From an uncultured Christensenellaceae bacterium (GTDB taxonomy: Bacteria; Bacillota; Clostridia; Christensenellales; DTU072), in contig CAYZOJ010000001.1 of the NCBI GenBank assembly GCA_964480195.1, positions 651-64,650 of the forward strand: a DNA stretch of 64,000 nucleotides. Direction: 5' to 3'. Both the position numbers and the translations under genes were made by a program. Below the pieces are notes generated by a model, which was not told the DNA's origin, searched no databases, and saw only the letters and a list, made by a program, of their open reading frames with translations. The first letter of the stretch is position 1, and the number at the start of each line of letters is the position of its first letter. Of this stretch, positions 27,662-64,000 are shown one piece after another.

Positions 27662-27704
27662 ATTACCTCTTTGCGCGCCCTCACGCGCGCGACTATACGT
27701 GTAT

Positions 27705-27733
27705 ATTTTAACATACGCGCGCGTACTTGGCAA
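27705..27733 (-). promoter_or_regulatory. putative promoter of the giant lipoprotein gene
   Basis: On the minus strand, TTGCCA (27733-27728) is followed by a 17-nt spacer and TAAAAT (27710-27705). The resulting 5' UTR contains the hairpin gcgcgc-gtgagg-gcgcgc just before the SD. Confidence 0.4.
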
Positions 27734-38161: not shown

Positions 38162-38191
38162 ACGCACTCCGCAGTCGATAGTATTGCTTAT

Positions 38192-44996: not shown

Positions 44997-47900
44997 CTAA
45001 TCTCTATACTTGATGTAGCGTTTTTCTCTCTTCTTCTTGACGCGCACCGATATGAATATAATCAACACGATTACGACTACCGCCGCCGCGATGACGATTA
45101 TGTACATCTGCGATCCCGCTTCCGAGGTACGGGCGATAACCACGCCCGACGCGCCCGTTACGTTGATTTTGACGTCGTCGCCGTCTATTACGACGTCGCG
45201 AACGTATATGAGTTCACCGCTACGACTTACGGTAAAGAATGCGAGTTCTTCCGTGTTTCCTGCGTCTTCCGGGAGCGTAAACGTAAGGTATATTTCGCCG
45301 TCCGGTGTAATTTCGGCATCGCCTACGCTGTATTTGATGTTGTAATACTTATACGCGCTCTTGTCTTCGAGAGTGGTATACGCGCTCTTTGCGTCGTTAA
45401 ACGCCGTGAGTATCCTCGACGTGTCTGCGTCCTTGACCGTAATGACGGTTTCCGCGTCGAATTTTCCGTCGAAAGTTGCTTCGACTTCGCCGTCCTCTTC
45501 GCCGGTCGCGTTTATTTGCGGTGCGTAGATTTTTACGGTAGCGTCAAGATAAATAAAATCGTAATTGTCGTCTTTGGCTCCGTACGGCGTTACCTTATAA
45601 GTTCCAGCGACCGAGGGTAGATCTACCGACGGTTTGACTTTAAGGTCGTCCTCGCCGTCGCCACCGCAGAATCCCTCGTAATAGAATTCGGCACGGAACT
45701 CGGAACCTTCTATCGCCTCTATATCCTCTATCGAGATGTTGAGTTCGGCTTTTTTGATTTTGAAATTATATGACGTCGAACCGCCGAGTACGTAATTTTT
45801 GTTGCCTATCGCTATCTTTAGCGTATGTGTGCCCGCGCCGATGAAGTCGCCGTCGTAAGTTTTGATTACGCCGAGATCTTCTTCCGTGTCGCCCTCGCGA
45901 AGACCGCGGAAAGAGTATTTAACGTCGTCTTTGTGAACGGAACCGTCATACGACGTACCGCTACCCGAGAAAGAAACCGTTATGCGTATGGGATTTACCT
46001 TAACGGTTACGTCCGCTTCGCACTCGTCGTAATTGGGGTCTTCCGGCGAGAATACAACCTTGCAAGTGCGGGTTTCGGATTCTTTGAAATCGAGCGTTTC
46101 ATCGTTTGCCCACGCAAGAGTTCCTTTGAGAGTAGCTTCCTTTGCTCCGTAAAATTCGAGTTCGGGAACCGCTATCTCGGATAACAAGGTACCGGGATCC
46201 GCATTTACGGTGATATTGTCGGTCGTTTCAGGAAGCGCGCGGGTTATTTTGAGCCCGCTCGTTTCGAACAGAACCGTCGCAAGGTAGTTCTCGGAAGAAT
46301 GGCTGATGCCTTTGTTTATGTATTCGTACGTCGCGTAACCTACGGTCGACGTGCCGATGTAGGCGTTTTCGCCCTCGATTCTCGTAAGAGATACTTCTAA
46401 CTCTATACTTTCTGCGGTATCGCCGTTTGCAAGTCCCTCTATCGTATATGCGGGCTTGGGATCTGCTTCCCCGTACTTTTTGGTTTGGGGCGTTACCTTG
46501 ACGGTCAACGTCGCGGGGGTTATCTTGTACGTTCCCGATACGAACGTGATTTCGTAATCGGGGTTTTCTTCTGCCAAATTGCCTGCCGATATCGGATAGC
46601 TACCTACTTTAGCTTCCGTTTCGCACGCAAGAGCTCCGCTCAATGTCGCTTCCGGACTCGTCGTAAAGGTAAGTTCCGCAAGCTCCTCGCCGTATACCGA
46701 CGATACATCGTCCGCCGTAACCGTTATCGCAAGTTTCGATACGGTAAGAGTGCCGTCCGCGCCTGCTTTAAACGTGTAACCGTCGGACACAGCCTCCGAC
46801 AAATCGAGTCCGAGAGTGTGGTTTCCTGCCGAATAAACCGAGTCTTCCTCGTGTTTAACGCCGTCTACGAGTACGATTATACCGCTTACTCCGCTCGGGA
46901 CTTCCGTCGAATCGCCGTAACGAACGGTAAATTCGGGGGACACGCCGTAATCAATCGTCTTGTCGCAAACGACCAACGTCATTTGGGCCTTGTTTATGAT
47001 TATAGTCGCCTCTGCTGAAACGGATTTATAGTTGGAAGTTTCGCATTTAGTAACGATTATTTCGATTTTGCCGGCTTTGCTAAACGAAAGAACGTTGCCA
47101 TCGAACGAACCGACATCCGAATAGCCTTCTTTTACTTCGTACGTATAGCGGTCGGGCTCGTTGCCGTCGGTATTCCCGCCCGTTGCAGTAACGGTTACGG
47201 TATGTCCGAATACGACTTCATTTGCGCAGTCAAGCGTAATCGCGGACTGCTCGGCTTTTTCGATGACAACCTCGACTTTCGGGTTGACGAGTTTATAGTT
47301 GCCGTCCGTAAAACCTATGACCTCGAACGAATACGTGCCCGCGCCTTGCATTGCGGTTATGTCCGCCTTTTCTGCGGGAGTGAGCATTTTGCCCGTAACG
47401 CTTAACTTTCGAGTTTTGTTGTCGACATCCGTAAACGACGCTTCGACGATATGTTCTTTGCCGTCGTAAACGAGATTGTTTCCGTCGCTTCCTAAAATTC
47501 CGTCATATTGTACGTAGACTTCCTTGGGATTAACCTTGTAGACGACGTAATCGTTTCCTTCTTCCGCCTCTTTGAATGTAAGGTTATAATATTTATCGGC
47601 ACTTCCGGATGTCGAGTCTATCGACACTCTGAGTTTGTAATTTCCTACATCCCCCATTGTCTGCCCGTCCAAAGGCTCAAACGAGAATTTAGGCAAAAGA
47701 CGGACGCTTACTACCGCGCCTTCCAAACTCCATTCGTGCGTGGTCAAACTCGGCATACGACCCGTTCCCGCATACTCGCCCTCGTATCCGCTTACGAAAG
47801 AAACGGTAACGTTACGCTTGACTATCTTGCCGTTTCCGACATAATCTTCGGGTGCCTTATAGTTGGTTTTGTCCGCGCCCGAAAGCGTAAACGTATAAGT

Positions 47901-51341: not shown

Positions 51342-53657
51342 TTACTTGCTCTTCACGATAAAAATAAGACCTGCGTGCGGAGCAAGTTTGATTGCCTTGC
51401 CGAGATTAAACGGACGTCCCTTTTGCATATTCCTTATCTCGGGACAACGGACTTTTTTGCCGACTGTCGTGAACCCGAGTTTGTTTTCGACGCCTATTTC
51501 GAACGTCTTTTTCTCTTCGGAATCGTTATACAAAACGGCTATCATATCTTTGCCGTTGATATACGACGTGCAATAGACGGACGCGTTATCCGATCTCACG
51601 GGATTGGTCTTGTCCCAATAGCCCTTTAACTCGGCATTTCCTATGTCGAAATCGCGGAATACGCGGTTAAGATCCTCTATCGCCTCGGTCGTTTCTTCAT
51701 CCTCACCGACACACGGGATTATTCCCGTCAGCAATCCCCTGCATATGCCTATCGGCGAGAGCGAATCGACGGTGAAGCCGTACGGCACACCGCTTACGCC
51801 TATCAATGTGGAATCGAGATCACGATCTCCGTATCCTTTTACTGCAACCTTAGAAACGAACGGCAATACGTCCGCATAAGTCGAAAGAGTATCTATGCGA
51901 CAGTCGGAATCCCCGTATCTGTTCGACAACACAAGTTCGGTAAATCCGCCCCCTCTTTTGCGGGTCATACATTTTTGTATTCTCTCCGCAACCGTAGGGG
52001 TAAGCGACGGATTGTGCATCGAAACGAAGTCGATATCCGCAACGCCTATAAGCCTCTTTAACGACTCGACGTAATAGTTATCGAACCTTGACGCCGTGGC
52101 TATGTGCCCGAACTCGCCAAAGTCCGTACGGAAACGGTCGAACATTATTTCGCCGTCCAACGACATTAGCGCGTAATACTCCGCGACATCGGATCCGAGC
52201 GTGTTGATACCGTATTCCAAACCGCACGCAATATCACGCTTATGGGCTACCAAAGTGAGCTTTTTGAGAGCCTTAACATCGTCTTGGACACTCTTTACGT
52301 GAGCGTTGCCCGCAGAAGGACGACCTACCGACAACGACGTCGTGCAGTAGCGCGAAGCGCGTGCCGACTCATCTTGGAAACCGCCTTGACCGAGTGTATA
52401 AATCCTGTTCCCTGCCGAAGCTCTGAGATCCAACGGACGGAACGGAGTAAGGTGTATATCGAAGCAGAACGACACCTTGTCGCCCTTTGCAAAAATCATC
52501 TTGCCTGTATACGCCGAGAACAACGCGCCTTCGTCTATTCTGCGAACGGTTACTCCGCCTTTGCCGTAATTTGCCCAAGTGGTCTTAGGCGGACGGGCGC
52601 CCGTTTCCAACGGGGCTCCGTATACGGGGAAGTCGCAGTTGTCGCGGTTTTCTCTAAGTCTTATACGGGCACCGCAGTTTACGTTGCCGATATAAAGATA
52701 GTCCCCGCCGACTTCCGTCCATTTGTAATCGAGGTCTTTGAGTCTACCCGGAGCCATACCCATTCCGACACCGTAATCGGCAGACGCAAAATACGCGTTC
52801 AGGCGTATGTCTTCGACAATGGCGTCTTCAAACGCGTCTATCGTAACGGTATAATGCAAAACGCCCTCGTAATGCGCTTCTGCGTTTACGGTTATATGCA
52901 ACTTATCGGATCTGCCGTCGGAAACTATTAACGCGGAATCGGGCTTATCGGTAATCTTTATACGGTTATACTTAAACTTTTGCCCTTCCGCGATAAACTC
53001 CATGGGACGGAAAAACAGCGACGCCGTTACCTCGTCCGTAAGCGCGTTGGATTCGGAATAATAGCTCTCGACGTCATTTATAAAGCCGTCGCCCGTAAAA
53101 CTCACGCGTTTTCCCGTAAACGTTACGGAGTTCTTGTCCGCCGAAACCGCGTAGAAACCCGGGACGAGTTTCTTATCCATATATTCGGTGGAATTGAGCC
53201 ATTTTAGCCTTGCAAGCGTGCTTCCGTCGTCCGTACCCTCGTTAAAAACGAGTTTGTCGGTAAGCTTGAATACGAGTTCCACTTTTTCGCCGTCAACGTA
53301 AACGTCCGTGCGATATTCGTCGATATCCGCTCTCGAGAGGTCTACGCCTATCAACAGAACGGTTATCGCGCCCGCGTTTACTCTGACGGGACGGGTAAAT
53401 TTTTTACCGTCCGCGCCGACGCCTTCGGAATTAAAGCAAGTTACGGCTTTATCGAAATTCTTGTTTGCACCTCTGAGCGGTCCCGTTTTGACCTCGACAA
53501 GCGCGTCAAAGCCCGTCAAAACAGCCAGCTGAACGACGTAATACTCGTGCCTTGACGGCGTATATTCGAACGTACGTCCGTCGTTTAACCCGTCAAGCAC
53601 GGAAAGATCGTAACGGTCGCTAATTACCGTTTTTCGGTCAATCGAATAAATTTTCAT
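51342..53657 (-). CDS. uncharacterised 771-aa protein, possibly a glycoside-hydrolase-like enzyme (operonic with GH2)
   Basis: Long ORF with SD ggagaa and no signal peptide. It sits 12 nt downstream of the GH2 gene. I cannot assign a family from sequence alone; the GH123/DUF4091-like idea is only a guess. Confidence 0.6.
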   Translation of the reverse strand: MKIYSIDRKTVISDRYDLSVLDGLNDGRTFEYTPSRHEYYVVQLAVLTGFDALVEVKTGPLRGANKNFDKAVTCFNSEGVGADGKKFTRPVRVNAGAITVLLIGVDLSRADIDEYRTDVYVDGEKVELVFKLTDKLVFNEGTDDGSTLARLKWLNSTEYMDKKLVPGFYAVSADKNSVTFTGKRVSFTGDGFINDVESYYSESNALTDEVTASLFFRPMEFIAEGQKFKYNRIKITDKPDSALIVSDGRSDKLHITVNAEAHYEGVLHYTVTIDAFEDAIVEDIRLNAYFASADYGVGMGMAPGRLKDLDYKWTEVGGDYLYIGNVNCGARIRLRENRDNCDFPVYGAPLETGARPPKTTWANYGKGGVTVRRIDEGALFSAYTGKMIFAKGDKVSFCFDIHLTPFRPLDLRASAGNRIYTLGQGGFQDESARASRYCTTSLSVGRPSAGNAHVKSVQDDVKALKKLTLVAHKRDIACGLEYGINTLGSDVAEYYALMSLDGEIMFDRFRTDFGEFGHIATASRFDNYYVESLKRLIGVADIDFVSMHNPSLTPTVAERIQKCMTRKRGGGFTELVLSNRYGDSDCRIDTLSTYADVLPFVSKVAVKGYGDRDLDSTLIGVSGVPYGFTVDSLSPIGICRGLLTGIIPCVGEDEETTEAIEDLNRVFRDFDIGNAELKGYWDKTNPVRSDNASVYCTSYINGKDMIAVLYNDSEEKKTFEIGVENKLGFTTVGKKVRCPEIRNMQKGRPFNLGKAIKLAPHAGLIFIVKSK

Positions 53658-53669
53658 GTTTTCTCCGAT

Positions 53670-56600
53670 TTATTTTACTATTTTTTTGAGTTTGAGCGCG
53701 GTAAATGGTATGAGCTTAAAGCTATACGTATAACTGCGCTTGGTTTTGAGTCTGTATTGTTCCATCGGACGAGGTCCGCAACTGTTACTGCCTATACCGC
53801 CCATATAGCCGTCGACGGTAACGTAATTGACGTCCTCGGTTACGATGTCTTCCCTATGGTTCCATTTGGACAACGCTTCGGGAGAATAGCGTTTGACGCC
53901 GAAGTTGAACGGCATACTGTCCGCAAGCACCATTACTCCGGCGCCGTTCGCGTTCGCAAACGCCACGTAGCGAACGTCGGTACGGTTACCGCATTCTTGA
54001 GGTCTGATATAGGGTTCCTCGAAATCGGCAACCTTGGCGGAATATACGCCGAGCCTCGATTGAGATTTGAAGTCGGGATAGCATTCTCTCGCGCCGTAGC
54101 CGTAATAAACGACGTTTTCAAAACGCGAAGCAAGTTCGATAATCTTACCGACTCTCGGAAGATCCGGTCCTTGCTTATCAAACGACGTTACACTGCTTTG
54201 TACCGTAACTTCGCCGTTTCCGTCTACGATATAAGTATCCTTGACGGTAAGCACTTTCTTCTTGCCCGCGCGAGCTATGGTAACAACCGAAATTTCGGCT
54301 CTGTCCGCATACTGCGCGACGTTGAAGCTTTGATTTTCGTATACCAACGCGTCGTAACCCGCTTTCGACCAACTCGCCTTGACATCGCGGTCGTTATCCG
54401 TGGGCGCACGATAAATGTTGGTATAAATCCTACCGAAATTCGCTTTACCTATATTCTTTTCGGCAAAATAGCTCACGCCGTCCGCTTCGTACCTGACAAG
54501 TATTCCGCTGGTTTTGTCAAAACGGAGTTTGCCGTTTGTGAACTCCACGTCCAAAAGGTTTGCGATTTCGACTATCTTTACACCGCTTTCGGGTTTTTGA
54601 ACGCCCAAGTCCGTAAGCGCTTCGTTGACGGTTACCTGATCGCACGCAACCAGTCTTTCGCCGTCGTAATAATCGAGATTTATGACGATATCGCCCTTGC
54701 GGATTTCGCAGTTAAGATTATACGCTCTCGACGCTCCCGCTTCGATGTCGGAAGGCAATACGAACTCGTATATAATCTTGCCTTCGAGGAGCATCGCGCA
54801 CTTAACAGTCAGATATGACGCGTTGCGGAATGCGTTACGGTTGCGGAGCTCGAGCATACCGCCACCGAGATATTTTGCATAAAGAGGTCTGTAGCTGTTG
54901 CGCATAGCGTATGCACTCGTCGAAGGAGTACGATCGGGATAGAACAGTCCGTCCACGCAGAAGTTTCCGTCGTGTACGTATTCGCCGTGGTCCCCGCCGT
55001 AGGTATATTTATAAGGCTTGTCGTCGCCGTGTCTTACGGCGTGATCGACCATTTCCCAAATGCAACCGCCCATAAGGTTTTCATAACGGAAGAACGCGTC
55101 GACATACTCTTCGAGACTGCCGGGTCCGACGCCCATGGCGTGTGCGTATTCGCAAAGGAAGAACGGCTTTGTCTTTAAGGCTTTTGTGGCGGGTGCCGTA
55201 TAAAGCCCGGGAGCTCCCTCTCCTATTTTACGGCAATTATCTACCGAAGTGTACATCATCGAAGCCACGTCGTACGCTCCGCGCTTGGTAGCTATCGCGC
55301 GCTCGTAATGAACGGGAAGAAGCGTAAGCTTACGGAGGTTCGCGTAGCAATAATCCTGGCATGCGATACCGTGAGATTCGTTACCGAGCGACCACATGGT
55401 AACGGACGGCGAGTTGCGATCGCGCATATACATCGATCTTACTCTGTCCCAATAATGTTCTTTCCACTTTAGGTTTCTGCTTATCTGTTTACGGTTACTC
55501 AAACCGTGCGTTTCGATATCTGCTTCGTCTATTATGTAAAGTCCGTAAATATCCGCAAGTTCTATAAACAGCGGGTCCGGAGGATAATGGGACGTGCGCA
55601 CGCAGTTGACGTTGAAATCCTTACAGAGGAGAATGTCTTTTTCGATTTTTTCGGGCGTCATATACCAGCCGGTATCGCAGTCGGTATCGTGGTGATTTAC
55701 TCCGAGAAGCTTGACACGTCTGCCGTTCACGCGGAACACTTTGCCGTCTATGGTTACGGTCTTGAAACCGACCTTTTTGACGATACTCTCTTGCGCCTTA
55801 CCGCCCTTAGAAAGAGTCAATACGAGAGTGTAAACCGTCGGCACTTCCGCATTCCATTCTTCGACGTCGAGAGCTCCGAACATAATTTGAGTTTCGGCTT
55901 GCGCGTCGACAGTCCTCGTCGCGACGATTTTGCCGTCTTTTATAATCTTGGCGCATACGCTCGCGCCGTCAGACTCCGTAACTTTGACGTTGAGAATGGC
56001 GTCGTAAGCACCGCCCTGTTTGGTGGTGAAAAACTCGAAATCGTAAATGTGGGTCTTATTGTTGACGTAAAGCAATACGTCGCGGAAAATACCGTTGTTA
56101 CGGAAGAAGTCCTGATCTTCCATATAAGAGCCGTTACACCATTTGTGAACGACGCACACCATTTCGTTTTCGCCGTCGAGAAGATATTTGTCAAGTAAAA
56201 ACTCTGCGGTATTGTGGCTACCCTCGGAATAACCGACGTATTGACCGTTGACGTAAAGCTCGAGATTGGACGCAACTCCGAGGAAAGAAACTATATACGT
56301 CTTATTCGTATCGGAAACGTCGAATTTGGTTCTGTATACGCCTACGCTGTTGTATTGCTTGTCGCCTACAACGTAAGTTTCGCCGTCTACCGCGCCTTGG
56401 TATACGCCTTCGATCTTATTGACCGAAACCTTGGGCGGAGTGGTAAGATACGGGTATCCGATGTTTGTGTAGAAAGGCGGTTCATAACCCGTAAACTGCC
56501 AGCACGACGGAACTTTAACTTTATCGAACGGGATATTGTCGGTATCTATCACGGCGGGCATCGCCTTATCGTTTACGTAATAGATGAAATCCCACTCGCC

Positions 56601-56768
56601 GTTCAGTATGCGAACTTTATCGCTTACGTAACGTTTTTCGGTAGGTTTTGCGCGCAATGCGTCTTTCTCGCTCGAAAACGGAATAAAGTACGCACGGGGT
56701 TCGAGCTTGTTTTCTCTGAAAACTTTGAAGTTCTTGAAGTTCGATTTTTCTTTGAGCTTGTAAATCAT
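53670..56768 (-). CDS. beta-galactosidase, GH2 (LacZ-like)
   Basis: Acid/base motif WSLGNESHG, nucleophile region CEYAHAMGVGPG and a C-terminal small-chain domain. 1032 aa. Confidence 0.92.
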   Translation of the reverse strand: MIYKLKEKSNFKNFKVFRENKLEPRAYFIPFSSEKDALRAKPTEKRYVSDKVRILNGEWDFIYYVNDKAMPAVIDTDNIPFDKVKVPSCWQFTGYEPPFYTNIGYPYLTTPPKVSVNKIEGVYQGAVDGETYVVGDKQYNSVGVYRTKFDVSDTNKTYIVSFLGVASNLELYVNGQYVGYSEGSHNTAEFLLDKYLLDGENEMVCVVHKWCNGSYMEDQDFFRNNGIFRDVLLYVNNKTHIYDFEFFTTKQGGAYDAILNVKVTESDGASVCAKIIKDGKIVATRTVDAQAETQIMFGALDVEEWNAEVPTVYTLVLTLSKGGKAQESIVKKVGFKTVTIDGKVFRVNGRRVKLLGVNHHDTDCDTGWYMTPEKIEKDILLCKDFNVNCVRTSHYPPDPLFIELADIYGLYIIDEADIETHGLSNRKQISRNLKWKEHYWDRVRSMYMRDRNSPSVTMWSLGNESHGIACQDYCYANLRKLTLLPVHYERAIATKRGAYDVASMMYTSVDNCRKIGEGAPGLYTAPATKALKTKPFFLCEYAHAMGVGPGSLEEYVDAFFRYENLMGGCIWEMVDHAVRHGDDKPYKYTYGGDHGEYVHDGNFCVDGLFYPDRTPSTSAYAMRNSYRPLYAKYLGGGMLELRNRNAFRNASYLTVKCAMLLEGKIIYEFVLPSDIEAGASRAYNLNCEIRKGDIVINLDYYDGERLVACDQVTVNEALTDLGVQKPESGVKIVEIANLLDVEFTNGKLRFDKTSGILVRYEADGVSYFAEKNIGKANFGRIYTNIYRAPTDNDRDVKASWSKAGYDALVYENQSFNVAQYADRAEISVVTIARAGKKKVLTVKDTYIVDGNGEVTVQSSVTSFDKQGPDLPRVGKIIELASRFENVVYYGYGARECYPDFKSQSRLGVYSAKVADFEEPYIRPQECGNRTDVRYVAFANANGAGVMVLADSMPFNFGVKRYSPEALSKWNHREDIVTEDVNYVTVDGYMGGIGSNSCGPRPMEQYRLKTKRSYTYSFKLIPFTALKLKKIVK

Positions 56769-56785
56769 ATCTCCTCCGAAATACG

Positions 56786-58321
56786 TTATTTGCTTACGCC
56801 TATCGCGTTATTTTTTGTTTGAATGCCTTGTACTTTGGACGCGTCGGTTTCGATGACAGGTTCGTTTTTGACTTCGCACTTCTCGTACTCGGTTCTCGAA
56901 CCCACTCCTATCAATCCGCCGACGTTGACCGTGCCCAACGAGTATATCTTGATATCTCCGTCGCTTGTAAAACCGCGTACCGCCATACGGTAACCGGTCG
57001 TGTTTTCGGTGCCTCCCGCGACTCCGCCGACGCTTACGTTGACTCGGGTTATGTTTACGTCTATGTCGCCGTCGAACGAGGAATTCGCCACTCCGCGGTT
57101 TTCGAGCCTTCCGAACAATCCGCCTATGTAGCAATAATCGAAATCGTTACCGCCGACAATGTTCACATCTATTACGGCAGAGCTATATAACTTGGCGGTT
57201 TCGTCTATATCGTAAACGCCGACCGTTTCGCGATACTCGGCGGTGTCCGCTCCGACGATTCCGCCTACGTAAAGCGCGCCGAAATCCGCAATCTCTTCCG
57301 ACGAAACGTTAACAGTTATCTCGGAAAAACTGCGACTTTCTCTGACCGTTACGTTTTTGACGCCACCCGCAATACCGCCGACTTTGATGTCGCCTCCCCC
57401 CGAAACGGTTATGTTCGTTTCGGAAACAAGTCCTTTACATATGCGTCCCGACGCAACACTCTTAACGCTCGAAGTCATATATCCTACGATACCGCCCGCA
57501 TAAAGTTGCGCGTCGGAAACAAGCTCAGACTTTACGGTAAAGGCGCCCGACGTTAAGCAATTTTCGATTACGCTGACTTCCGCCCTGTTTGCTATAACTC
57601 CGACATTGCAGGCGCTTTTCGCTACCGCTCCGCCGGTTACTCCGCTTACGGTCAAGCCCTCCACGACGGCTCCGCGCAGTTCGCCGAACAAACCGCCCTT
57701 GCCAATGTCGAGTGCCGTTATTTTGTATCCGTTACCGTAAAACTCTCCCGAGAAAGTCGGATATCTGCGCGCCTCTCCCGAAAAATCCAAGTCGTTCGAC
57801 AGCACGTATACGCCGTTTGCGGACATCGCGAAAAACGAGTCGGCGTCGGTAACGTATCCGTCGACCTTTTTGACTACGATTTTGACTTCCGCAATAACGA
57901 CGTTGCCTTTGTTATACGCAACCTCAAACGTGGCTTCGTCACCCTCTTCCGCTCCGCTTGTTTTGACAATGAAATCTCGGGTTAACTCTATCGACTCGGT
58001 TCCGAGTTTTTGGGTTATAGTAAAGTTTTCGTACGGGATATTACCGCAAAACGACGGTTCGATTTGGTACTGTGTTTTCGAAGAGTTGACGGCGTAGGTG
58101 TAATATCCTTTGTATTTTACGCCCAAAGCGTATGTGGGACCGTCCGGGGTTTCATCGCCCAAAAACACCGCAAGCAAAACGGCGCAAACGATTAAAATGA
58201 TTACAACGCACAACGAAACGCACAAAATGATTTTTTTGCGTTTGCTCATAGGTTGTTTTTCCTCGTTCTTCTTTACCGAAACGGATTTGACGGAGGAATC
58301 GTTTTTTACGTTCTTAGGCAT
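56786..58321 (-). CDS. GLUG-motif protein with an N-terminal TM anchor (511 aa)
   Basis: KRKKIILCVSLCVVIILIVCAVLLAVFLG anchor. Repeated GLUG-type motifs (AGGIVGYMTS, VGGIAGGVKN, VGGIVGADTA, IGGLFGRLEN, VGGVAGGTEN, VGGLIGVGS). Confidence 0.85.
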   Translation of the reverse strand: MPKNVKNDSSVKSVSVKKNEEKQPMSKRKKIILCVSLCVVIILIVCAVLLAVFLGDETPDGPTYALGVKYKGYYTYAVNSSKTQYQIEPSFCGNIPYENFTITQKLGTESIELTRDFIVKTSGAEEGDEATFEVAYNKGNVVIAEVKIVVKKVDGYVTDADSFFAMSANGVYVLSNDLDFSGEARRYPTFSGEFYGNGYKITALDIGKGGLFGELRGAVVEGLTVSGVTGGAVAKSACNVGVIANRAEVSVIENCLTSGAFTVKSELVSDAQLYAGGIVGYMTSSVKSVASGRICKGLVSETNITVSGGGDIKVGGIAGGVKNVTVRESRSFSEITVNVSSEEIADFGALYVGGIVGADTAEYRETVGVYDIDETAKLYSSAVIDVNIVGGNDFDYCYIGGLFGRLENRGVANSSFDGDIDVNITRVNVSVGGVAGGTENTTGYRMAVRGFTSDGDIKIYSLGTVNVGGLIGVGSRTEYEKCEVKNEPVIETDASKVQGIQTKNNAIGVSK

Positions 58322-58384
58322 GTACGCTCCTTAATCCCTATACCTGTCTATTATAACACTAATGTCGCCCGTTGTAAATGCTAA

Positions 58385-58415
58385 ATTAAAAATAAAATCC
58401 GCGTGCGCGGATTTT
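58385..58415 (-). terminator. rho-independent terminator after the three-paralog cluster
   Basis: aaaatccgc-gtgc-gcggatttt (58394-58415). On the minus strand it is followed by ATTTTTAATTT. Confidence 0.7.
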
Positions 58416-58532
58416 TAATTATATGTGCGCTTATGCGTGCGCTTAACTTGCCCTATCCCGTCGGGTTCAGTTAAACCGCATTACGGGCGGAAACGACGTT
58501 TGCGGGCGTATGACCGCCCTCGGTAAAAAGTC

Positions 58533-60026
58533 TTATTTATCGCCGAACACGTCGCGCGGGTCGATACGCTCTTCCGACAACTCGTCTTTTTGAGCCCTCT
58601 GTTCCGCTTTACGCTTTTTGCGCTTTTTGATTTTGACGACTACTACGACGATTATCGTTACGGGTATGACAACTATAACGACAAGTCCGATAATAAGCGC
58701 GACTATTATGAACGTGTATAGTCCGTTGTCGACTTCCTCGGGCGACTCGGACGCGCATACGGAGAACTTAAGTTCGCCGTTCGGGAGCCCGTTCCCGACA
58801 TATTCGTAATATCCGTCGTGTTTCTCGAAACCCTCGAGCGACGGCTCCGACAGGTAATACGACGTGTTTATTCGAATATTAATATCCCCGAAAGACGCCC
58901 ACGTTTTGGCGGGACTCAGGTAATAATTGAACGTGTAAACACTCGGCTCATACCCGTAATCGACGTCGGGAAACAGAGGTGCGGTAACTTCGTTTACAAT
59001 AGTCTGTCCCGAAGCAAAAACGAGTTCGTACTCATACCAACACAGTAAGTCGTCGTCAATCTTGAAGTCGTACGTGCTAAGGAGCTTTTCTTTTCCCGCG
59101 CCGTCCGCGTATGAGTCGTCGAGATTTGCGACGACCGCGTTATACCAGTCGACCTCCGATACGCAAGAGTCTTCCGGTCTAAACTCCATCACCATATCGA
59201 GAAAAGTTATTGTTTCTTTGGAAACGACGTCTATCGACCCTGTGCACTTTTTACTTTCGCTAAAAGCCATCGTATCGTAATACTCGGCGGTTTTAGCGAA
59301 GTTCGCGTTATCCTCTCCTATAAAATAGACTGTGAGTTTTTCTTGATAAGAAGTTTCATCCGACTTTTCCGCCGTCAGCCAAAACGAAATGTGAGTGTAT
59401 TCGTCGTCGCCGTATTCGAATCCCGACGCGTCACTCACCGTTATGCCGTTATATTCGGTCAGCGCAAAACGCACGGCTCTACCCGTCGCGTGCACGTCGT
59501 AAACGTATTTGTATACGACCATATCCGTTTTCCAAAAATCGTTTTGCACATACTCGTCGCACAAAAGTTTTGCGTCTTCGGCGTAATCGAACTCGTCCGT
59601 CCAACGCTGTTTATAGGTATGTCTGACTGTTTTTAAAATATCCGCGCCGTCCGCGGTTATGCGCATATAATTCTGCTCGGCGTCTTCGGGAAGATCGCTA
59701 ACAAACCCTATCGGGAACAAAAGACCAACCTTTGCCGTATAATCGGCGGGGTTACGGAAGGTGTATTTTGCGGTTACCCTGCCTCCGCAATCGTATTGCA
59801 GATAATTTTCCGTTTCCGTTTCGATATCAAAAGTAAGCTCCTCGCTGTCAACGACTATCGGGCAGTCTTCCGTCGTAACGATTACTCCGCTCGAATCCAC
59901 TCCGTCGAAATACCTCATCGCGGAATTTGCCGACGCGGGTGTCCCGCCTAAGCTCGTTAGCGAAAACGCCGTTACGCATACCGCAAACAGCAACGCAAAA
60001 ATGCCGACTTTAATTTTATTCTTCAT
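58533..60026 (-). CDS. uncharacterised type I membrane protein, paralog 1 of 3
   Basis: Signal peptide MKNKIKVGIFALLFAVCVTAFSLTSLGGTPASA. Conserved blocks CPIVVDSEELTFDI, YDCGG(R/K)VTAKY(T/A)FRNPADYT, CWYEY(E/D)L, NEVTAPL(F/Y)PDV and YYLSPAKTWASFG. C-terminal TM helix plus a Lys/Arg-rich tail. Confidence 0.85.
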   Translation of the reverse strand: MKNKIKVGIFALLFAVCVTAFSLTSLGGTPASANSAMRYFDGVDSSGVIVTTEDCPIVVDSEELTFDIETETENYLQYDCGGRVTAKYTFRNPADYTAKVGLLFPIGFVSDLPEDAEQNYMRITADGADILKTVRHTYKQRWTDEFDYAEDAKLLCDEYVQNDFWKTDMVVYKYVYDVHATGRAVRFALTEYNGITVSDASGFEYGDDEYTHISFWLTAEKSDETSYQEKLTVYFIGEDNANFAKTAEYYDTMAFSESKKCTGSIDVVSKETITFLDMVMEFRPEDSCVSEVDWYNAVVANLDDSYADGAGKEKLLSTYDFKIDDDLLCWYEYELVFASGQTIVNEVTAPLFPDVDYGYEPSVYTFNYYLSPAKTWASFGDINIRINTSYYLSEPSLEGFEKHDGYYEYVGNGLPNGELKFSVCASESPEEVDNGLYTFIIVALIIGLVVIVVIPVTIIVVVVVKIKKRKKRKAEQRAQKDELSEERIDPRDVFGDK

Positions 60027-60100
60027 AGAGCCTCCTTTATGCGTAACAACCTATATTCGTATGGCATATTACGTACGATGCCTGTTCCCCACCGGGCATG

Positions 60101-61549
60101 TCAATTCGTTTTCTTTCTGCGTTTAGATCTTTTAGTAAGCAATATTGCAATTATAGTTAAAGCCACGGCTGTCGTCAAAATGATAACACCGACTATAATT
60201 ATCCAAGTTAACGAAGTATGCCCTGTGTATTTAGGATAATAAAGTGCACATGTGGTAAACTTAAGTTCACAATCCGGGAGCCCTTTACCTACATATTCAT
60301 AGTATCCGTCATATTTTTTGAAGCCTTCGAGTGAAGGCTCTTTCACATAATGCGATGTGTTAATTCTTATTGTCAAATCCCCGAAAGACGCCCACGTCTT
60401 AGCGGGGCTTAAGTAATAATTGAATGTGTAAGCTTTAGGATCCGAACCGGTATATACATCCGGATAGAGCGGGGCAGTAACTTCGTTTATTATCGTTTCA
60501 CCGGGCGCAAAACTAAGGTCGTATTCGTACCAGCATATAAGGTCGGAACCCAAGTCCATATAGTCATCGAAAGTCCAATCCGAGGGCTCGGTTTCCCACT
60601 TCTTTTTATCACAACGTTTAGCGACCATTACGTTATACAGATCGACATCCGTGATATCCAAATACGCCGAGCGCTCGGCTTTTAATTCCTTAATCATATC
60701 AAAATATGTGATTTCGTCTTTTGTTGCGATATATACAGAACCGGTACACTCTTCTTCTAAAGACGTATCGTAATATGTAACCGCAGAGCCTAAATTACCG
60801 TTTTCAATATCGACATCATAATAATATCCAAAAGACTCTTCTATATCCACTCCGATAAAATATATCGTAACTCTCTTATAGTAGGTCGTTTCCGATTCCG
60901 CATCCAAACTAAACGTCAGTTTTCTATTGCTTGAATACCCGCAACTCGTCGCGTTGCTAACAGTCATTCCGCCATATCGGCTCAAATCCAACCGCGCGAC
61001 TTGACCGGTTGAATGTACGTCGCAAATATATTTATGAACGCTAAGATCTGCGCTATATATGCCTTGTTTTATACAGTCATCTCTTAAAAGTTGCATGTCT
61101 TTTGCGTAATCGAAATCTTCTCTGTCTTTGTGCTTATAGGTGTAACGCGGGGTCATTTTTACATCCACGCCGTTTGCTGTCACACTACTATAATCACGTC
61201 CTTTATCGTTGGCTTTTTTAGACACAAAACCTGCAGAGAACAATAAACCGACATTGACGGTATAGTCGGCGGGATTGCGGAACGTATATTTAGCCGTTAC
61301 CTTGCCTCCGCAATCGTATTGCCAAAAACGCTCATCATCCGTTTCGATATCGAAAGTAAGCATCTCACTGTCGACAACTATCGGGCACTCTTCCGTCGTA
61401 ATGATTAGACCGCTCGAATTAACTCCGCTATAATACGTCCGCGCGGAATTGGCTGACGCGGGTGCCCCGCCTAAGCTCGTTAGCGAAAACGCCGTTACGC
61501 ATACCGCAAACAGCAACGCAAAAATGCCGACTTTAATTTTATTCTTCAT
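60101..61549 (-). CDS. uncharacterised type I membrane protein, paralog 2 of 3
   Basis: Same architecture as paralog 1. The first 97 nt, including the SD, are identical to paralog 1. Confidence 0.85.
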   Translation of the reverse strand: MKNKIKVGIFALLFAVCVTAFSLTSLGGAPASANSARTYYSGVNSSGLIITTEECPIVVDSEMLTFDIETDDERFWQYDCGGKVTAKYTFRNPADYTVNVGLLFSAGFVSKKANDKGRDYSSVTANGVDVKMTPRYTYKHKDREDFDYAKDMQLLRDDCIKQGIYSADLSVHKYICDVHSTGQVARLDLSRYGGMTVSNATSCGYSSNRKLTFSLDAESETTYYKRVTIYFIGVDIEESFGYYYDVDIENGNLGSAVTYYDTSLEEECTGSVYIATKDEITYFDMIKELKAERSAYLDITDVDLYNVMVAKRCDKKKWETEPSDWTFDDYMDLGSDLICWYEYDLSFAPGETIINEVTAPLYPDVYTGSDPKAYTFNYYLSPAKTWASFGDLTIRINTSHYVKEPSLEGFKKYDGYYEYVGKGLPDCELKFTTCALYYPKYTGHTSLTWIIIVGVIILTTAVALTIIAILLTKRSKRRKKTN

Positions 61550-61608
61550 AGAGCCTCCTTTAAGTTAGTAACCGTCCGCAAAAGGGTTTCTATCGTCGTA
61601 CGCCACTT

Positions 61609-63093
61609 CTATTGCCGTAAGTTAATCAATATGATGACAAGTATCACCACAAAAGCAACAACCGCAAAAACAATAGCGACGGTTTCCACCTTCGGCATCT
61701 GTATATTTGACGTAATCGTGTTTGTTGTTGCTGTTGTTTTTTGCGTGGGCTTCTTTGCTGTTACGGTAAACTTAAGTTCGCCGTTCGGGAGCCCGTTTCC
61801 GACATATTCATAGTACCCGTCATACTTTTCAAACCCGTCTAACGATGGTTTGATCATATATAACGACGTGTTTATCGTTATCTTTAACGAGCCAAATGAC
61901 TTCCACGTCTTTGCGGGACTTAAAAAGTAGTTGTACGTATATTGGTTATCCTCGTGTGCATTCGTTTTATAGTTATAATCTACATCGGGATAGAGCGGTG
62001 CGGTAACTTCGTTTATTATCGTTTCGCCTGGCGCAAAACTAAGGTCGTATTCGTACCAGCATATAAGGTCGGAACCTAAGTCCATATAGTCATCGAAAGT
62101 CCAATTATCGCGACGCCATGCCGACTTACTATTGTTGTGTTTTGCTACTATCGCGTTATGTAGGTCTATGTCCGAAATGCCCGAGATTGCGGAATAATCA
62201 GACATCTCCTTAATCATATCGAAATACGTTATCCGGTCTTGGGAAACAATGCGTACTGAGCCCGTACGCTCTTTTTCAAAAGACATCGTATCGTAATACC
62301 TTACCGCCGAGCCCAAATTGTCGTTATCAATATCGACATCACTATACTTGTACATATCGTTTCCGATGTCCGCTCCGATAAAGTATACGGTAACTCTTTT
62401 GTAGTAAGCCGACTTAGATTTATCGGCGGTATCGCTTTCTTCGTCTAGTTCAAACGTCAATACCCCGCCGTATTGTTCTTCGCTTTTAGTGGCATTGCCC
62501 ACGGCTATTCCGTCGTAATTGCTTAAATAAAATCTTACCGCCCGTCCTGTCGAATGTACGTCACAGACATATTTATAAACTTCGAGGTCTTGGTCATACT
62601 TGCCCCTCTCTATGCACTCGTCACTTAAAAGTTTTACGTCTTCGGAGTAATTGAAATTGTAATTACCGTCATTTACTTTATAACTATAACGAATACGTTT
62701 GTCTATACTATCACCGTTAACCGTTATATTCATATACTCTTTTGTGGCTTCGTCCGGCTCATCGCACACAAAACCTATAGGAAACAAAAGTCCGACATCG
62801 GCTGTATAATCGGCGGGGTTGCGGAACGCATATTTAGCCGTCACCTTGCCTCCGCAATCGTATTGGTTAAACTTCTCCTTATCTATTTGGATATCGAAGG
62901 TAAGCTCCTCGCTGTCGACAACAATAGGACAATCCTCTGTCGTGAGCAACACTCCGCTCGAGTCCACACCCTCAAAATACGTCATCGCGGAATTGGCTGA
63001 CGCGGGTGCCCCGCCTAAGCTCGTTAGCGAAAACGCCGTTACGCATATCGCAAACAACAACGCAAAAGCCACTGCTTCAATTTTTCTTTTCAT
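61609..63093 (-). CDS. uncharacterised type I membrane protein, paralog 3 of 3
   Basis: Same architecture as the other two. It shares a near-identical block of about 118 nt with paralog 2. Confidence 0.85.
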   Translation of the reverse strand: MKRKIEAVAFALLFAICVTAFSLTSLGGAPASANSAMTYFEGVDSSGVLLTTEDCPIVVDSEELTFDIQIDKEKFNQYDCGGKVTAKYAFRNPADYTADVGLLFPIGFVCDEPDEATKEYMNITVNGDSIDKRIRYSYKVNDGNYNFNYSEDVKLLSDECIERGKYDQDLEVYKYVCDVHSTGRAVRFYLSNYDGIAVGNATKSEEQYGGVLTFELDEESDTADKSKSAYYKRVTVYFIGADIGNDMYKYSDVDIDNDNLGSAVRYYDTMSFEKERTGSVRIVSQDRITYFDMIKEMSDYSAISGISDIDLHNAIVAKHNNSKSAWRRDNWTFDDYMDLGSDLICWYEYDLSFAPGETIINEVTAPLYPDVDYNYKTNAHEDNQYTYNYFLSPAKTWKSFGSLKITINTSLYMIKPSLDGFEKYDGYYEYVGNGLPNGELKFTVTAKKPTQKTTATTNTITSNIQMPKVETVAIVFAVVAFVVILVIILINLRQ

Positions 63094-63141
63094 GTCTGCC
63101 TCCTTGTCTTTTAGTTTCTCATTTTTCCGTCTTTAACTCGT

Positions 63142-64000
63142 TTATCTATAATATCTATCGTCGTAACCTCTGTGATAGCCGTCTTTTCTTTCGTCGTGTT
63201 TTTTACCTTTCTTTGTCATGGACGACGCACTGAACGTCTTGAACTCATCGCGGAACTCGCCTTGCTGTACGTCCGAAACGACATAGATTGACACAAATAT
63301 TATCAACGTTAAAACCATTCCGATAACGCTTCCCGCGAAGTCGATAACAACGTCAATAAACGACGCCGTCCTGCCGGACGTAAAAATCGGCAATTGGAAT
63401 ATCTCCGAGATCCCCGCGACGGCAAATGTAATTACCGGGGCGACGACTGCACTCCACCCTTTCTTTTTAAGCATTAACAGGCAACACGTAAGCACGCCTA
63501 CGCCGAGTAAACCGAATGCCGCAAAGTGTCCGATGAATTTACGCACGAACAGTTTGAAGCTCTTATAGATTACTCCGTGAACGGTCTTTTCCGCCACGAG
63601 TTCGGAATTCAATGAAGTCGTGGCTCTAAGCTTTATATCGCCTATTCCGGTGCAAAGAAGATTTCCGTCCTCTCCTATCGTGCCGGGTCCCTCGACAACT
63701 TCCCAAGTAACCTCGGCGTCCGTAAAATTCCTTTCGTACTGCACCGAATACTTCGATGAGGAATTATAAGCTATTCTTTCGTCGCCGACTATTGCCATTT
63801 CCGACGGCACTCCGCCGAGAACGTTAACGACAACGTCTTTTGTAAGGCTCTTATCATATACGGACGTTACCGAAATTACGCACTCGCCGTTAGATACGCC
63901 GTACACTTCGCCGTACTCACCGACCGTCGCAACGCTCGGATCCGACGATACCATAACGAACTCTAAGCTCGACGATATCTTCTTATCCGTATATTTCGGA
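63142..64000 (-). CDS. Big_2 domain - VanZ-like membrane protein fusion (probably 5'-truncated by the window edge)
   Basis: SSDPSVATVGEYGEVYGVSNGECVISVTS is a Big_2 signature, and two Ig-like units are present. The C-terminal FIGHFAAFGLLG...ISEIFQLPIFTSGRTASFIDVVIDFAGSVIG is VanZ-like. The frame upstream of the track's Met (63954) stays open to position 64000 (..KISSSLEFVMVSSDP). Confidence 0.75.
   Translation of the reverse strand, partial: PKYTDKKISSSLEFVMVSSDPSVATVGEYGEVYGVSNGECVISVTSVYDKSLTKDVVVNVLGGVPSEMAIVGDERIAYNSSSKYSVQYERNFTDAEVTWEVVEGPGTIGEDGNLLCTGIGDIKLRATTSLNSELVAEKTVHGVIYKSFKLFVRKFIGHFAAFGLLGVGVLTCCLLMLKKKGWSAVVAPVITFAVAGISEIFQLPIFTSGRTASFIDVVIDFAGSVIGMVLTLIIFVSIYVVSDVQQGEFRDEFKTFSASSMTKKGKKHDERKDGYHRGYDDRYYR

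Follow-up and report, generated by a model that had tools for sequence, protein, structure and literature searches.

A probable lineage-specific tandem array of old paralogues from a widespread Clostridia membrane protein family, with recombination mainly at the 5' end

The three adjacent genes described here probably form a lineage-specific tandem array of ancient paralogues, drawn from a widespread unnamed Clostridia family and recombining with one another mainly at their 5' ends. They lie in a window of 64,000 nucleotides from an uncultured Christensenellaceae bacterium, the whole stretch of DNA that was analysed. All three are ORFs on the minus strand, with the coordinates and lengths given in a preliminary description of the sequence: par1 (58533-60026, 497 aa), par2, the middle copy (60101-61549, 482 aa), and par3 (61609-63093, 494 aa). 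The evidence supports reading them as paralogous genes for an uncharacterised type I membrane protein; the products are 54-60% identical in pairwise amino-acid comparison. From the N terminus, each product carries a signal peptide, ~400 aa of ectodomain and a C-terminal TM helix; this layout, as first described, is borne out by hydropathy (hydrophobic segments at residues 3-30 and, for the TM helix, near the C terminus) and by an AF2 model whose helices 2-26 and 445-481 coincide with those segments. The basic tail ascribed to all three is found in par1, where it is long and basic/acidic, and in par2, but is nearly absent from par3, which ends ...LINLRQ. Among the cysteine-containing blocks proposed as conserved, C55 (in CPI) is kept family-wide (73/85), whereas the cysteines of YDCGG and LICWYEY are not conserved.

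The array is closed, as had been noticed, by an intrinsic terminator on the minus strand (58394-58415; a 9-bp stem and then a T-run), next to the promoter-distal copy, par1. Past the terminator is a promoter-like site for the next gene (TTTACA-17-TATAAT, 58350-58378). Upstream, adjoining par3, lies the 3' part of a gene for a Big_2-VanZ membrane protein (63142-64000, minus strand), which runs off the window and whose orthologues are 706-723 aa long. Its orientation and its VanZ assignment stand (63142-63954 and beyond; Pfam E 2.7e-8, NCBIfam vanZ_1 1.5e-11). Within the part of the gene that the window covers, Big_2 stays below threshold (E 0.0044; 17.4 bits, cut-off 22.8), but Big_2 matches are listed without that mark in the full-length orthologues of two related contigs, L001 and L006.

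The family is widespread: clustering at 50% identity gives 1,718 groups (E<=1e-3), whose proteins are uniformly 450-520 aa long. There are 87 clusters at 90% identity, and 223 and 358 relatives were found in genome and metagenome contigs; par1 scores 526 bits against the family HMM. No Pfam model exists for the family, none of the three window proteins has any Pfam match, and no conserved gene neighbour was found in the loci examined. Structure prediction, recommended at the outset, gave an AF2 model of par2 with pLDDT 84.4 and pTM 0.80. Its best Foldseek match in the PDB, and the only one at E<=1e-3, is 4g2a (E 1.6e-4, probability 1.0); sub-threshold matches to the Pfam family DUF4424 occur in 22 of 85 relatives. 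The family architecture comprises an invariant ASANSA-x3-W-x-G motif and a large beta-sandwich ectodomain distantly like DUF4424/lpg2210, with a helical insert and a further block of beta-strands at its C-terminal end. Very tentatively, the paralogues may serve, without catalysis, as membrane-tethered modules for binding or scaffolding on the outer face of the membrane. That they differ mostly in the central ectodomain (roughly residues 120-335) suggests differing ligand specificities.

Against this divergence stand blocks of near identity. Tract 1 runs from 13 nt before the ATG, taking in the SD, through 84 nt of coding sequence for the signal peptide; the par1 copy (59943-60039) is identical to the par2 copy (61466-61562; SD and 28 codons, minus strand like its counterpart). 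The 97-nt identity is exact, as reported, and maximal, being extendable neither way. Within its 84-nt coding part, par1 differs from its own orthologue at 11 sites and par2 from its own at 15. In par3 the corresponding signal-peptide block (62986-63047, minus strand) is identical to par2 over 62 nt (61442-61503) and to par1 over 38 nt (59943-59980). A 40-mer already quoted as shared with par3 occurs exactly at 61464-61503 and 63008-63047 and with one mismatch at 59941-59980. Over coding alignment columns 31-84, the window paralogues differ from each other at 2 of 54 sites at most, but from their orthologues or counterpart in L006, the nearest relative, at 4-6, and the two L006 copies differ from each other at 8. 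Tract 2, on the minus strand, is shared by par2 (60452-60579, encoding WTFDDYMDLGSDLICWYEYDLSFAPGETIINEVTAPLYPDV) and par3 (61978-62105); it has 7 differences in 128 nt between flanks that are 41-48% different. A recount of the part first recognised (60462-60579 against 61988-62105) confirms its 5 mismatches over 118 nt.

When polymorphic sites were permuted in the manner of GENECONV, the 5' par1/par2 run had p=0.0002 for the pair and 0.001 globally, and two adjacent par2/par3 runs, which bear on tract 2, had p<0.0002. The chance of a 97-nt exact run, given 85-90% background identity, is 1e-7 to 4e-5. Synonymous divergence (pS) among the paralogues is 0.12-0.24 in codons 1-40, compared with 0.6-0.9 elsewhere, while between close orthologues the same codons are undepressed (0.24 and 0.33; gene mean ~0.2). 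The gene conversion first proposed from the mosaic pattern is thus supported: because of the permutation results, a likeness within the window greater than that to orthologues, and locally low synonymous divergence, the patchwork identity is explained by short conversion tracts. Other, independent arrays show a homogenised 5' end as well: in the pair from Christensenella sp. UBA7588 (L008/L088), the 90-nt segment of highest similarity (91%) is the signal-peptide 5' end, against 44-85% elsewhere, and in the L094 array the copies are 100% identical over their first 90 nt.

A comparison of copy number among related contigs, another of the checks first suggested, gives differing counts of one (L001-L005) and two (L006), against three in the window, with both copy numbers and junctions read from short-read or unknown-technology assemblies; the two-copy state of L006 is possibly a collapsed array. 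L006 is ~91% identical to the window over 61523-51315, and its copies are orthologues of par2 (L006_c1; 91.8% nucleotide identity to the par2 body) and par1 (L006_c2; 93.0%). The single copy of L001-L005 is orthologous to par1 (70.5%, L001_c) and has no differences across five metagenome assemblies of the single-copy lineage. The NJ tree, ((par3,(par2,L006_c1)),(L001_c,(par1,L006_c2))), has support of 94-100, with 99.5-100 for the orthology of par1 and 99.5 for par3 as sister to par2/L006_c1. On this tree, the parting of the par1 type from the par2/par3 type probably came earlier than the split from the L001 lineage with its single copy; rate acceleration after duplication could distort the tree, and dS, being saturated, cannot settle this order of events. 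No orthologue of par3 was found in the databases searched, where it is a singleton cluster among ~15 billion proteins. The upstream UTR and first 10 codons of L006_c1 match those of par3, and this L006 gene is a chimera, with a par3-type 5' end joined to a par2-type body within the signal-peptide block, as expected if one repeat unit had been deleted.

The copies probably arose through duplication after the split from the P0005 lineage and have since diverged under purifying selection, with homologous recombination between them acting chiefly on the signal-peptide-coding 5' end. A recent non-reciprocal transfer gave par1 and par2 the same SD and the same first 28 codons; par2 is the probable recipient, since the par1-type SD and 5' end are also present in the L006 orthologue of par1. 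The near identity of the signal-peptide core in all three copies is likewise an outcome of recombination. Tract 2 reflects an older exchange between par2 and par3, dating to roughly the time of the split from L006: par2 and par3 differ from L006_c1 there at 11 and 10 of 128 sites. If the event came after that split, par3 would be the recipient, because par2 keeps ~91% identity to its L006 orthologue in this tract; if it came before, donor and recipient are ambiguous, the three sequences being roughly equidistant (7, 10 and 11 of 128). Tract 1 is the only recent tract. The signal-peptide block may also serve as a crossover site for unequal recombination. Tracts may persist at the 5' end because signal peptides are interchangeable, whilst exchanges inside the functionally diverged ectodomains would be purged by selection.

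The preliminary description went further and saw ongoing recombination of the kind found in contingency or variable-surface loci, where frequent exchange among copies yields new surface variants for antigenic or receptor variation. Tandem surface-exposed proteins with mosaic tracts, copy numbers that differ between relatives and a central ectodomain divergent between paralogues would all fit, but this reading is very improbable. The array orthologues are 92-93% identical and diverge no faster than flanking genes. The dN/dS analysis proposed at the outset indicates purifying selection both between orthologues (0.14 and 0.18; neighbour genes 0.04-0.11) and between paralogues (0.20-0.26), whose dS of 1.2-1.8 is saturated, and the single-copy gene is invariant over five assemblies. 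The tracts are short and number just two or three; simple-sequence repeats, invertible segments and silent cassettes were looked for and none is present; and central ectodomain variability matches the variable columns of the whole family (Spearman -0.43). A single-copy gene conserved in relatives, the finding that the preliminary description itself set against its proposal, is seen in L001-L005 and, as to copy number, in some 95% of the 160 loci taken from other organisms, but not in L006 with its two copies. Because the copies are old and conserved, the array reflects gene-family evolution of the ordinary kind rather than a system for switching surface variants. It is more improbable still that recombination played no part and that nucleotide-level selection on 5' mRNA structure, a translation/secretion-coupling signal or constrained peptide motifs kept the blocks alike. 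Between close orthologues, synonymous divergence in codons 1-40 is not reduced, although the figure for par1 against the distant L001_c is also lowish there (0.38 against ~0.6-0.8). The blocks do span the SD, the signal peptide and the highly conserved WYEY...NEVTAPLYP motif, yet in tract 2 the similar par1 peptide is encoded with 50-54 of 128 nt different, the window paralogues are closer to each other than to their own orthologues, and an Rfam search gave no match.

An assembly artefact, with par3 and par2 being first-slot alleles of two co-existing two-copy strains threaded together through the signal-peptide repeat, is decidedly unlikely, and so is its consequence that neither the three-copy state nor the 97-nt identity is real. 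A direct repeat occurring twice permits a single linear order only, and a jump needs an exact run at least as long as the assembler k, whereas all three copies have 38 nt in common. The unique intergenic sequence at 61550-61608 must also physically link to a par1-type 5' end. The artefact would account for the two-copy L006 with its chimeric first gene, for the zero differences between the par2 and par1 5' ends and for the absence of par3 from all other records, but homogenised signal-peptide blocks are also present in independent arrays from other assemblies, and signal-peptide conversion and par2/par3 recombination would be needed even so. Lateral acquisition, in which recombination in the conserved 5' block would have placed par2/par3-type genes from a relative of lower GC next to par1, is unlikely, though it draws on base composition: GC3 is 0.429 in par2, 0.49 in par3 and also within 0.43-0.49 in L006_c1, compared with 0.573 in par1 and 0.55-0.58 for par1 and its neighbours together, a lowering not predicted by duplication in situ. 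GC3 can also fall where weakly expressed copies are under relaxed codon selection. Divergence from L006 is higher in the VanZ 3' part adjoining par3 (dS 0.48) than in the downstream genes (0.24-0.36), and par3 is a database singleton; on the other hand, a library that represents ~15 billion proteins contains no closer relatives of par1 than par2 and par3, both genes fall inside the clade bounded by P0005, and mobile-element genes are absent near the array. Such an acquisition would be compatible with later conversion.

The ectodomain of the array proteins is best compared with DUF4424 (PF14415; lpg2210 of Legionella pneumophila, PDB 4g2a), an LTA4H-N-like beta-sandwich proposed to recognise substrates, which is likewise extracytoplasmic, with a signal peptide and a multi-sheet beta-sandwich (PMC3848476). 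Both families are of uncharacterised function. The likeness is distant: even the best-scoring relatives stay at 25.6 bits, below the cut-off of 27, and over only profile positions 34-101 of 306, no profile-to-sequence match of the family to 4g2a was obtained, and TM-scores between the family model and 4g2a are low (0.26/0.38). DUF4424 proteins are 300-360 aa long and occur mainly in Proteobacteria and Fusobacteria, whereas the present family, in Clostridia, is longer, adds a helical insert, extra C-terminal beta-strands and a TM anchor, and has no YARHG.

Ost1/ribophorin I, of the eukaryotic oligosaccharyltransferase, also combines type I topology with lumenal/extracellular beta-sandwiches followed by a TM anchor. 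Its weak Foldseek likeness (6ezn_A, 6s7t_E; E 1e-3 to 4e-3) comes with probabilities of only 0.2-0.25 and TM-scores of ~0.15, and may be taken as a lead only. A literature search for a link between it and the family found nothing.

Among systems of recombining surface-protein genes, the outer-membrane protein genes babA/babB and their kin in Helicobacter pylori, which undergo gene conversion, and opa/pil of Neisseria have conserved ends, a divergent middle and non-reciprocal exchange of segments. They are dispersed, with measurable switching, often phase-variable repeats or silent cassettes, and diversifying selection. The array resembles them in its conserved ends and divergent middle and in exchanging segments non-reciprocally between paralogous surface-protein genes, but dispersal, switching, phase-variable repeats, silent cassettes and diversifying selection were not found in it. 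Like the array, the cluster of lpl (lipoprotein-like) genes in nuSa-alpha of Staphylococcus aureus (Tsuru & Kobayashi 2008, PMC2568036) and the csa1 'gene accordions' (PMC7360770) consist of tandem, co-oriented cell-surface paralogues. There is no sequence homology, and the array proteins are TM-anchored type I proteins with no lipobox rather than lipoproteins. The array is also small (3 copies), old and rarely rearranged among the few available genomes, and neither rapid expansion and contraction nor immune interaction is in evidence. The conserved block lies at the 5' end here and centrally in lpl/csa1. A conserved intragenic nucleotide block is the site of homologous recombination in those clusters and its likely site in the array, giving rise to chimeric ORFs and to differences in copy number among related genomes.

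As far as comparison of sequences can show, the tandem array comprises three ancient, intact and selectively maintained paralogs with short conversion tracts, together with a chimeric ortholog in a related contig; copy number differs between assemblies. The genes, par1 (58533-60026, minus strand), par2 (60101-61549, minus strand) and par3 (61609-63093, minus strand), encode proteins of 497, 482 and 494 aa that are 54-60% identical pairwise. All three ORFs are intact, each is preceded by its own Shine-Dalgarno sequence, and the spacers of the head-to-tail array are 74 and 59 nt. A hydrophobic N-terminal segment (residues 3-30) followed by an A-x-A-type site (ASA/NSA), an ectodomain of about 400 aa and a hydrophobic C-terminal 30-40 residues give each protein a predicted type I single-pass layout, with a signal peptide, an extracytoplasmic body and one C-terminal TM helix. 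This layout had been proposed in the preliminary description and is borne out both by hydropathy and by AF2 helices at residues 2-26 and 445-481. The basic tail that had been assigned to all three is found as a Lys/Arg-rich segment in par1 and par2, but par3 ends four residues past the helix and has virtually no tail.

The array is preceded by a VanZ-family gene in the same orientation that runs off the window. The VanZ assignment and the orientation agree with the earlier label of a co-oriented Big_2-VanZ gene, whilst the Big_2 domain is sub-threshold in the portion within the window and is recorded in full-length orthologs. A good intrinsic terminator at 58394-58415 closes the array, as had been described. 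A family search of the window found no further copies or fragments elsewhere in it, and Rfam gave no match over 56000-64000. After the terminator comes a gene with a promoter-like site of its own (56786-58321, minus strand) for a 511-aa protein whose N-terminus forms a TM anchor and which contains many GGIVG/GLUG-like repeats; it has no significant Pfam match (GLUG E 0.43), and lies in synteny downstream of the family gene in contigs L001-L006 and in the more distant locus L009. The same minus-strand block encodes GH2 (53670-56768), GH123 (51342-53657) and GH20 (beta-hexosaminidase family, 41976-43589) enzymes, suggesting a glycoconjugate-degrading organism. Also on the minus strand are genes for three giant predicted surface proteins, most of whose length has no Pfam match: 16301-27733 (3,810 aa; MBG_2, Big_3), 34496-38167 (1,223 aa; Big_3) and 44997-50579 (1,860 aa; MBG_2). 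The presence of DnaE (6192-9764) and citrate synthase (43604-44971) indicates that the region is chromosomal.

The blocks of nucleotide identity on which the gene conversion reading was founded are confirmed. The 5' block of par1 (59943-60039) matches that of par2 (61466-61562) over exactly 97 nt and is not extendable either way. The match of 60462-60579 to 61988-62105, between par2 and par3, does have 5 mismatches in 118 nt, and the full internal tract (60452-60579 and 61978-62105) has 7 differences in 128 nt. A 40-mer said to be shared with par3 is found unchanged in par2 and par3 and with a single mismatch in par1; the exact runs include a 62-mer common to par2 and par3 and a 38-mer common to all three copies. 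When the polymorphic sites of the codon-aware alignment were shuffled in the manner of GENECONV, the 5' par1/par2 run was significant at p=0.0002 pairwise and 0.001 globally, and two adjacent par2/par3 runs at p<0.0002.

Comparison with orthologs in L006, the nearest relative, provides what we regard as stronger evidence for conversion than the permutation test. Over the first 84 coding nt, par1 and par2 are identical. The distance to the L006 ortholog is 11 sites for par1 and 15 for par2, and 19 sites separate the two L006 copies. Such a pattern, with paralogs closer than orthologs, is the mark of conversion that took place once the lineages had separated. Across the signal-peptide core (columns 31-84), the three window copies have at most 2 differences in 54 sites. 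Paralog pS is 0.12-0.24 in codons 1-40 against 0.6-0.9 elsewhere, and close-ortholog pS in the same codons (0.24-0.33) is not lowered, so selection at the nucleotide level does not explain the 5' block. The permutation tests, the ortholog comparison and the lowered paralog pS at the 5' end thus support the original gene conversion reading. The internal tract appears older. There, par2 and par3 differ at 7 of 128 nt, par2 and the L006 ortholog of par2 (L006_c1) at 11, and par3 and L006_c1 at 10; these roughly equal distances imply that the exchange is about as old as the split between the window and L006. If it were younger, the donor would be par2. Over the same 128 nt par1 differs at 50-54 sites, and the flanks of the tract differ between par2 and par3 at 41-48% of sites.

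The history of the array can be followed in orthologs found in public metagenome assemblies. L006 (SRR10277267, Logan assembly) shares about 91% identity with window 61523-51315. Its two copies are orthologous to par2 (91.8% nt) and par1 (93.0% nt) and have, as in the window, the Big_2-VanZ gene on one side and the downstream 511-aa, GH2 and GH123 genes on the other. In L001-L005, five more contigs with about 78% nt identity to the window, the locus has one copy only, so that in assemblies the syntenic locus holds one, two or three copies. An NJ tree of the ectodomain, with the single-copy P0005 (locus L009, which shares the downstream 511-aa and GH2 synteny) as outgroup, gave ((par3,(par2,L006_c1)),(L001_c,(par1,L006_c2))) with 94-100% support, where L001_c is the single copy of L001 and L006_c2 the ortholog of par1. 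Paralog dS is saturated (1.2-1.8, against 0.24-0.36 between the window and L006), so the par2/par3 split is far older than the window/L006 split, and the missing par3-type gene in L006 is best read, from these sequences, as a loss. A loss is also supported by the structure of L006_c1 (L006:4830-5030), in which a par3-type upstream UTR, SD and first ~10 codons are followed by a par2-type body. The 5' alignment puts the switch between CDS nt 27 and 36, inside the conserved signal-peptide block, and the chimera looks like the product expected of an unequal crossover in this block with deletion of one repeat unit.

For L001, with its single copy, either a further loss has to be assumed or the tree is distorted by acceleration of the substitution rate after duplication. 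It would also be possible for the three-copy state itself to be a chimeric tandem path, assembled through the shared block from two two-copy haplotypes; this state and all the copy numbers are known from assemblies alone, though we consider such an artefact improbable. The lineage has been sampled very sparsely. Among ~15 billion proteins par3 is a singleton, the 90% clusters of par1 and par2 contain only their L006 orthologs besides, and a contig look-up with the exact par2 protein returned no record. A first metagenome scan with close-paralog patterns found no relatives, and a second found 358, none above 38% identity. GC3 is 0.429 in par2, 0.488 in par3 and 0.420 in L006_c1, with values of 0.573 in par1, 0.572 in the 511-aa gene, 0.575 in GH2 and 0.554 in VanZ; the low values could reflect lateral (foreign) origin or relaxed codon selection. 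The C-terminal part of VanZ (window 63142-63954 against L006:4035-4847) has 87.9% nt identity and a dS of 0.48; the genes downstream of the array are less diverged (91-93%, dS 0.24-0.36), and a recombination boundary may lie near the array.

The mosaic identity had been likened to that of contingency or variable-surface gene families, and this part of the preliminary description does not hold. Such a system is argued against by purifying selection, stable orthologs and the lack of a switching device or cassettes. Ortholog dN/dS against L006 is low, 0.14 for par1 and 0.18 for par2 (0.09 for the 511-aa gene, 0.11 for VanZ and 0.04 for GH2), and ortholog nt identity (92-93%) is the same as that of the flanks. 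Neither hypervariability nor diversifying selection was found between close strains in a very thin sample of L006 and the five L001-type assemblies; in the latter the single-copy gene has 0 differences, weak evidence given that these assemblies are otherwise near-clonal. All or nearly all of the SNPs among L001-L005 (22 and 31) lie in FGGY kinase and MFS transporter genes, at L001 positions 1472-2779 and 3661-4857, clusters that are patches of localised recombination between strains. The columns that vary between the paralogs are those that vary family-wide (Spearman rho -0.43, p 1e-20), and the divergent middle of the proteins thus reflects generally low constraint, not targeted diversification. 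No SSR in a promoter or 5' CDS and no invertible segment was found, the inverted repeats being short, imperfect and scattered. TRF reported only four weak arrays (2.4-3.6 copies), none in an intergenic or promoter region: three lie within coding sequence outside the signal-peptide-coding 5' ends, and the fourth (58203-58225) overlaps that part of the neighbouring 511-aa gene which encodes the N-terminus. The window contains no silent donor cassettes or pseudogene copies.

The protein family is uncharacterised but widespread. Scans of par1-3 against Pfam, NCBIfam, PADLOC and PHROGs gave only TM-segment noise, and relatives are named 'hypothetical protein' at source, apart from one (P0073) named 'DUF4424 domain-containing protein'; the records that bear names derive from Clostridia MAGs. 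A full-library profile search returned 1,718 clusters at 50% identity, 830 of them at E<=1e-30, nearly all of 450-520 aa and matched end to end. Genome records with relatives carry the labels Christensenella, Oscillospiraceae, Lachnospiraceae and Pseudoflavonifractor (among the last P. capillosus ATCC 29799, locus L054), and many other gut MAGs have relatives too. No neighbour family recurs across 80 genome loci; the commonest neighbours are housekeeping or unrelated genes, each at no more than 8 of these loci (a generic ABC transporter reaches 19), namely YbaK-type tRNA_edit, Rex, cytidylate-kinase-like, radical SAM and HTH regulator genes. An operon partner was dropped for want of a conserved neighbour, as was an ECF sigma/anti-sigma idea, and a functional module with Big_2-VanZ and the 511-aa GLUG-like protein was rejected since the association is confined to the closest relatives.

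About 95% of 160 loci from other organisms have one copy within +/-8 kb. In a tandem pair of Christensenella sp. UBA7588 (L008:7890-11340, the same as L088), the top 90-nt window is the signal-peptide-coding 5' end, with 91% identity against 44-85% outside it and an exact run of 56 nt; in a pair on a metagenome contig (L094:3-2706) the first 90 nt are 100% identical, with an exact run of 47 nt. Since these two independent arrays repeat the pattern, homogenisation of the export signal recurs upon tandem duplication of the family. No conversion tracts were found in the older arrays L138, L085 and L056. Some arrays (L085:4809-7984, L056:1448-3040 and L138:2863-4314) also contain a sister subfamily that is divergent (140-275 bits with the family HMM), has a different N-terminus and is without the ANSA motif.

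The fold suggests a distant connection. An AF2 model of par2 from an 85-sequence alignment (pLDDT 84.4, pTM 0.80) comprises the signal helix (2-26), a low-confidence linker (27-46), a large beta-sandwich (~58-281), a helical insert (282-330), further beta strands (337-434) and the TM helix (445-481). Its single Foldseek match in the PDB at E<=1e-3 is 4g2a, Legionella lpg2210 (E 1.6e-4, prob 1.0), the founding DUF4424 structure, a 19-stranded, three-sheet sandwich resembling the LTA4H/M1 aminopeptidase N-domain; substrate recognition or partnership with an enzyme has been proposed for lpg2210 (PMC3848476). The DUF4424 HMM (PF14415) does not match par1-3 even at E<=1; 22 of 85 relatives match at E<=0.01, all sub-threshold, and the best scores (25.6, 24.0 and 21.6 bits, gathering score 27) cover profile positions 34-101 only. 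DUF4424 proteins have a signal peptide, 300-360 aa and an optional C-terminal YARHG domain (PMC3848476). par1-3 share the signal peptide, but at 482-497 aa they are longer and carry in addition a helical insert, more C-terminal beta-strands and a TM anchor; unlike YARHG-bearing members they give no YARHG match. The family is probably a distant relative of DUF4424 and not a member. The family profile gave only chance matches to PDB sequences (UafA E 0.02) and none to 4g2a even at E<=10, Foldseek against viral structures was uninformative (best matches giant-virus unknowns, E>2e-3), and the literature yielded no Ost1/LTA4H link. Modelled separately, residues 332-440 (pLDDT 86) have no strands in their first 30 residues and match only generic beta-sandwich/CBM-like PDB structures, none below E 0.4; the loss of these strands in isolation shows that the domain boundary assumed there was wrong.

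The signal-peptide h-region is followed by the motif A-S-A-N-S-A-x3-(W/Y/F)-x-G-x4-G, whose start (codons 31-36) lies on the minus strand at 59921-59938 in par1, 61444-61461 in par2 and 62988-63005 in par3. A33, N34 and G42 are present in 83/83 aligned family members, and the motif is not placed in the AF2 model (pLDDT <50 over residues 27-46). A general sorting signal was rejected, since across the ORFs of the window and of 87 loci ANSA near an N-terminus was seen in this family only; the motif could be a specific cleavage (processing) or docking signal. The proteins may, with low confidence, be non-catalytic, membrane-tethered binding or scaffold modules whose paralogs differ in ligand specificity. 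A long-shot extension is that this is an unrecognised Clostridia envelope family in which rare arrays split central-ectodomain specificities, for instance for host-glycan, cell-wall or phage-related ligands, whilst recombination keeps the export signal uniform and the motif serves processing or docking.

The array is a clean, small example of tandem surface-protein paralog evolution in an uncultured gut Clostridia lineage, with prolonged divergence under purifying selection, conversion tracts and unequal crossover readable from three related contigs. In it, short conversion tracts are confined to the interchangeable signal-peptide region, and crossover at the same block alters copy number. The example cautions that mosaic identity in surface-gene arrays need not mean antigenic variation. 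Of more use is a by-product, the family: a membrane protein of gut Firmicutes that is widespread, uniform in build and wholly unannotated, with an invariant post-signal-peptide motif and a distant DUF4424-like fold. It merits a definition of its own.

The recombination itself is of a known kind. RecA-type homologous recombination between misaligned copies, via the signal-peptide block, would mostly leave non-reciprocal patches (conversion) and more rarely produce unequal crossovers by which a unit is lost or gained. Patches at 5' ends would persist because signal peptides are interchangeable, whilst those in the ectodomain would mostly be purged because the copies have diverged in function. 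The closest mechanistic analogue is the tandem lpl and csa1 clusters of S. aureus, whose rearrangements and changes in copy number are driven from a conserved block within the genes (PMC2568036, PMC7360770). Comparable dynamics have not been seen for par1-3, and the proteins lack homology to the Lpl/Csa lipoproteins, with no Pfam/NCBIfam match in a test that covered the lipobox and DUF576 and no Cys at the signal-peptide end (C55 is the first thereafter), so the resemblance is mechanistic only. Like those clusters, the array consists of co-oriented tandem paralogs with a highly conserved nucleotide block (38 nt in all three), and assemblies of the locus have copy-number differences and a chimeric ORF with its junction in the conserved block.
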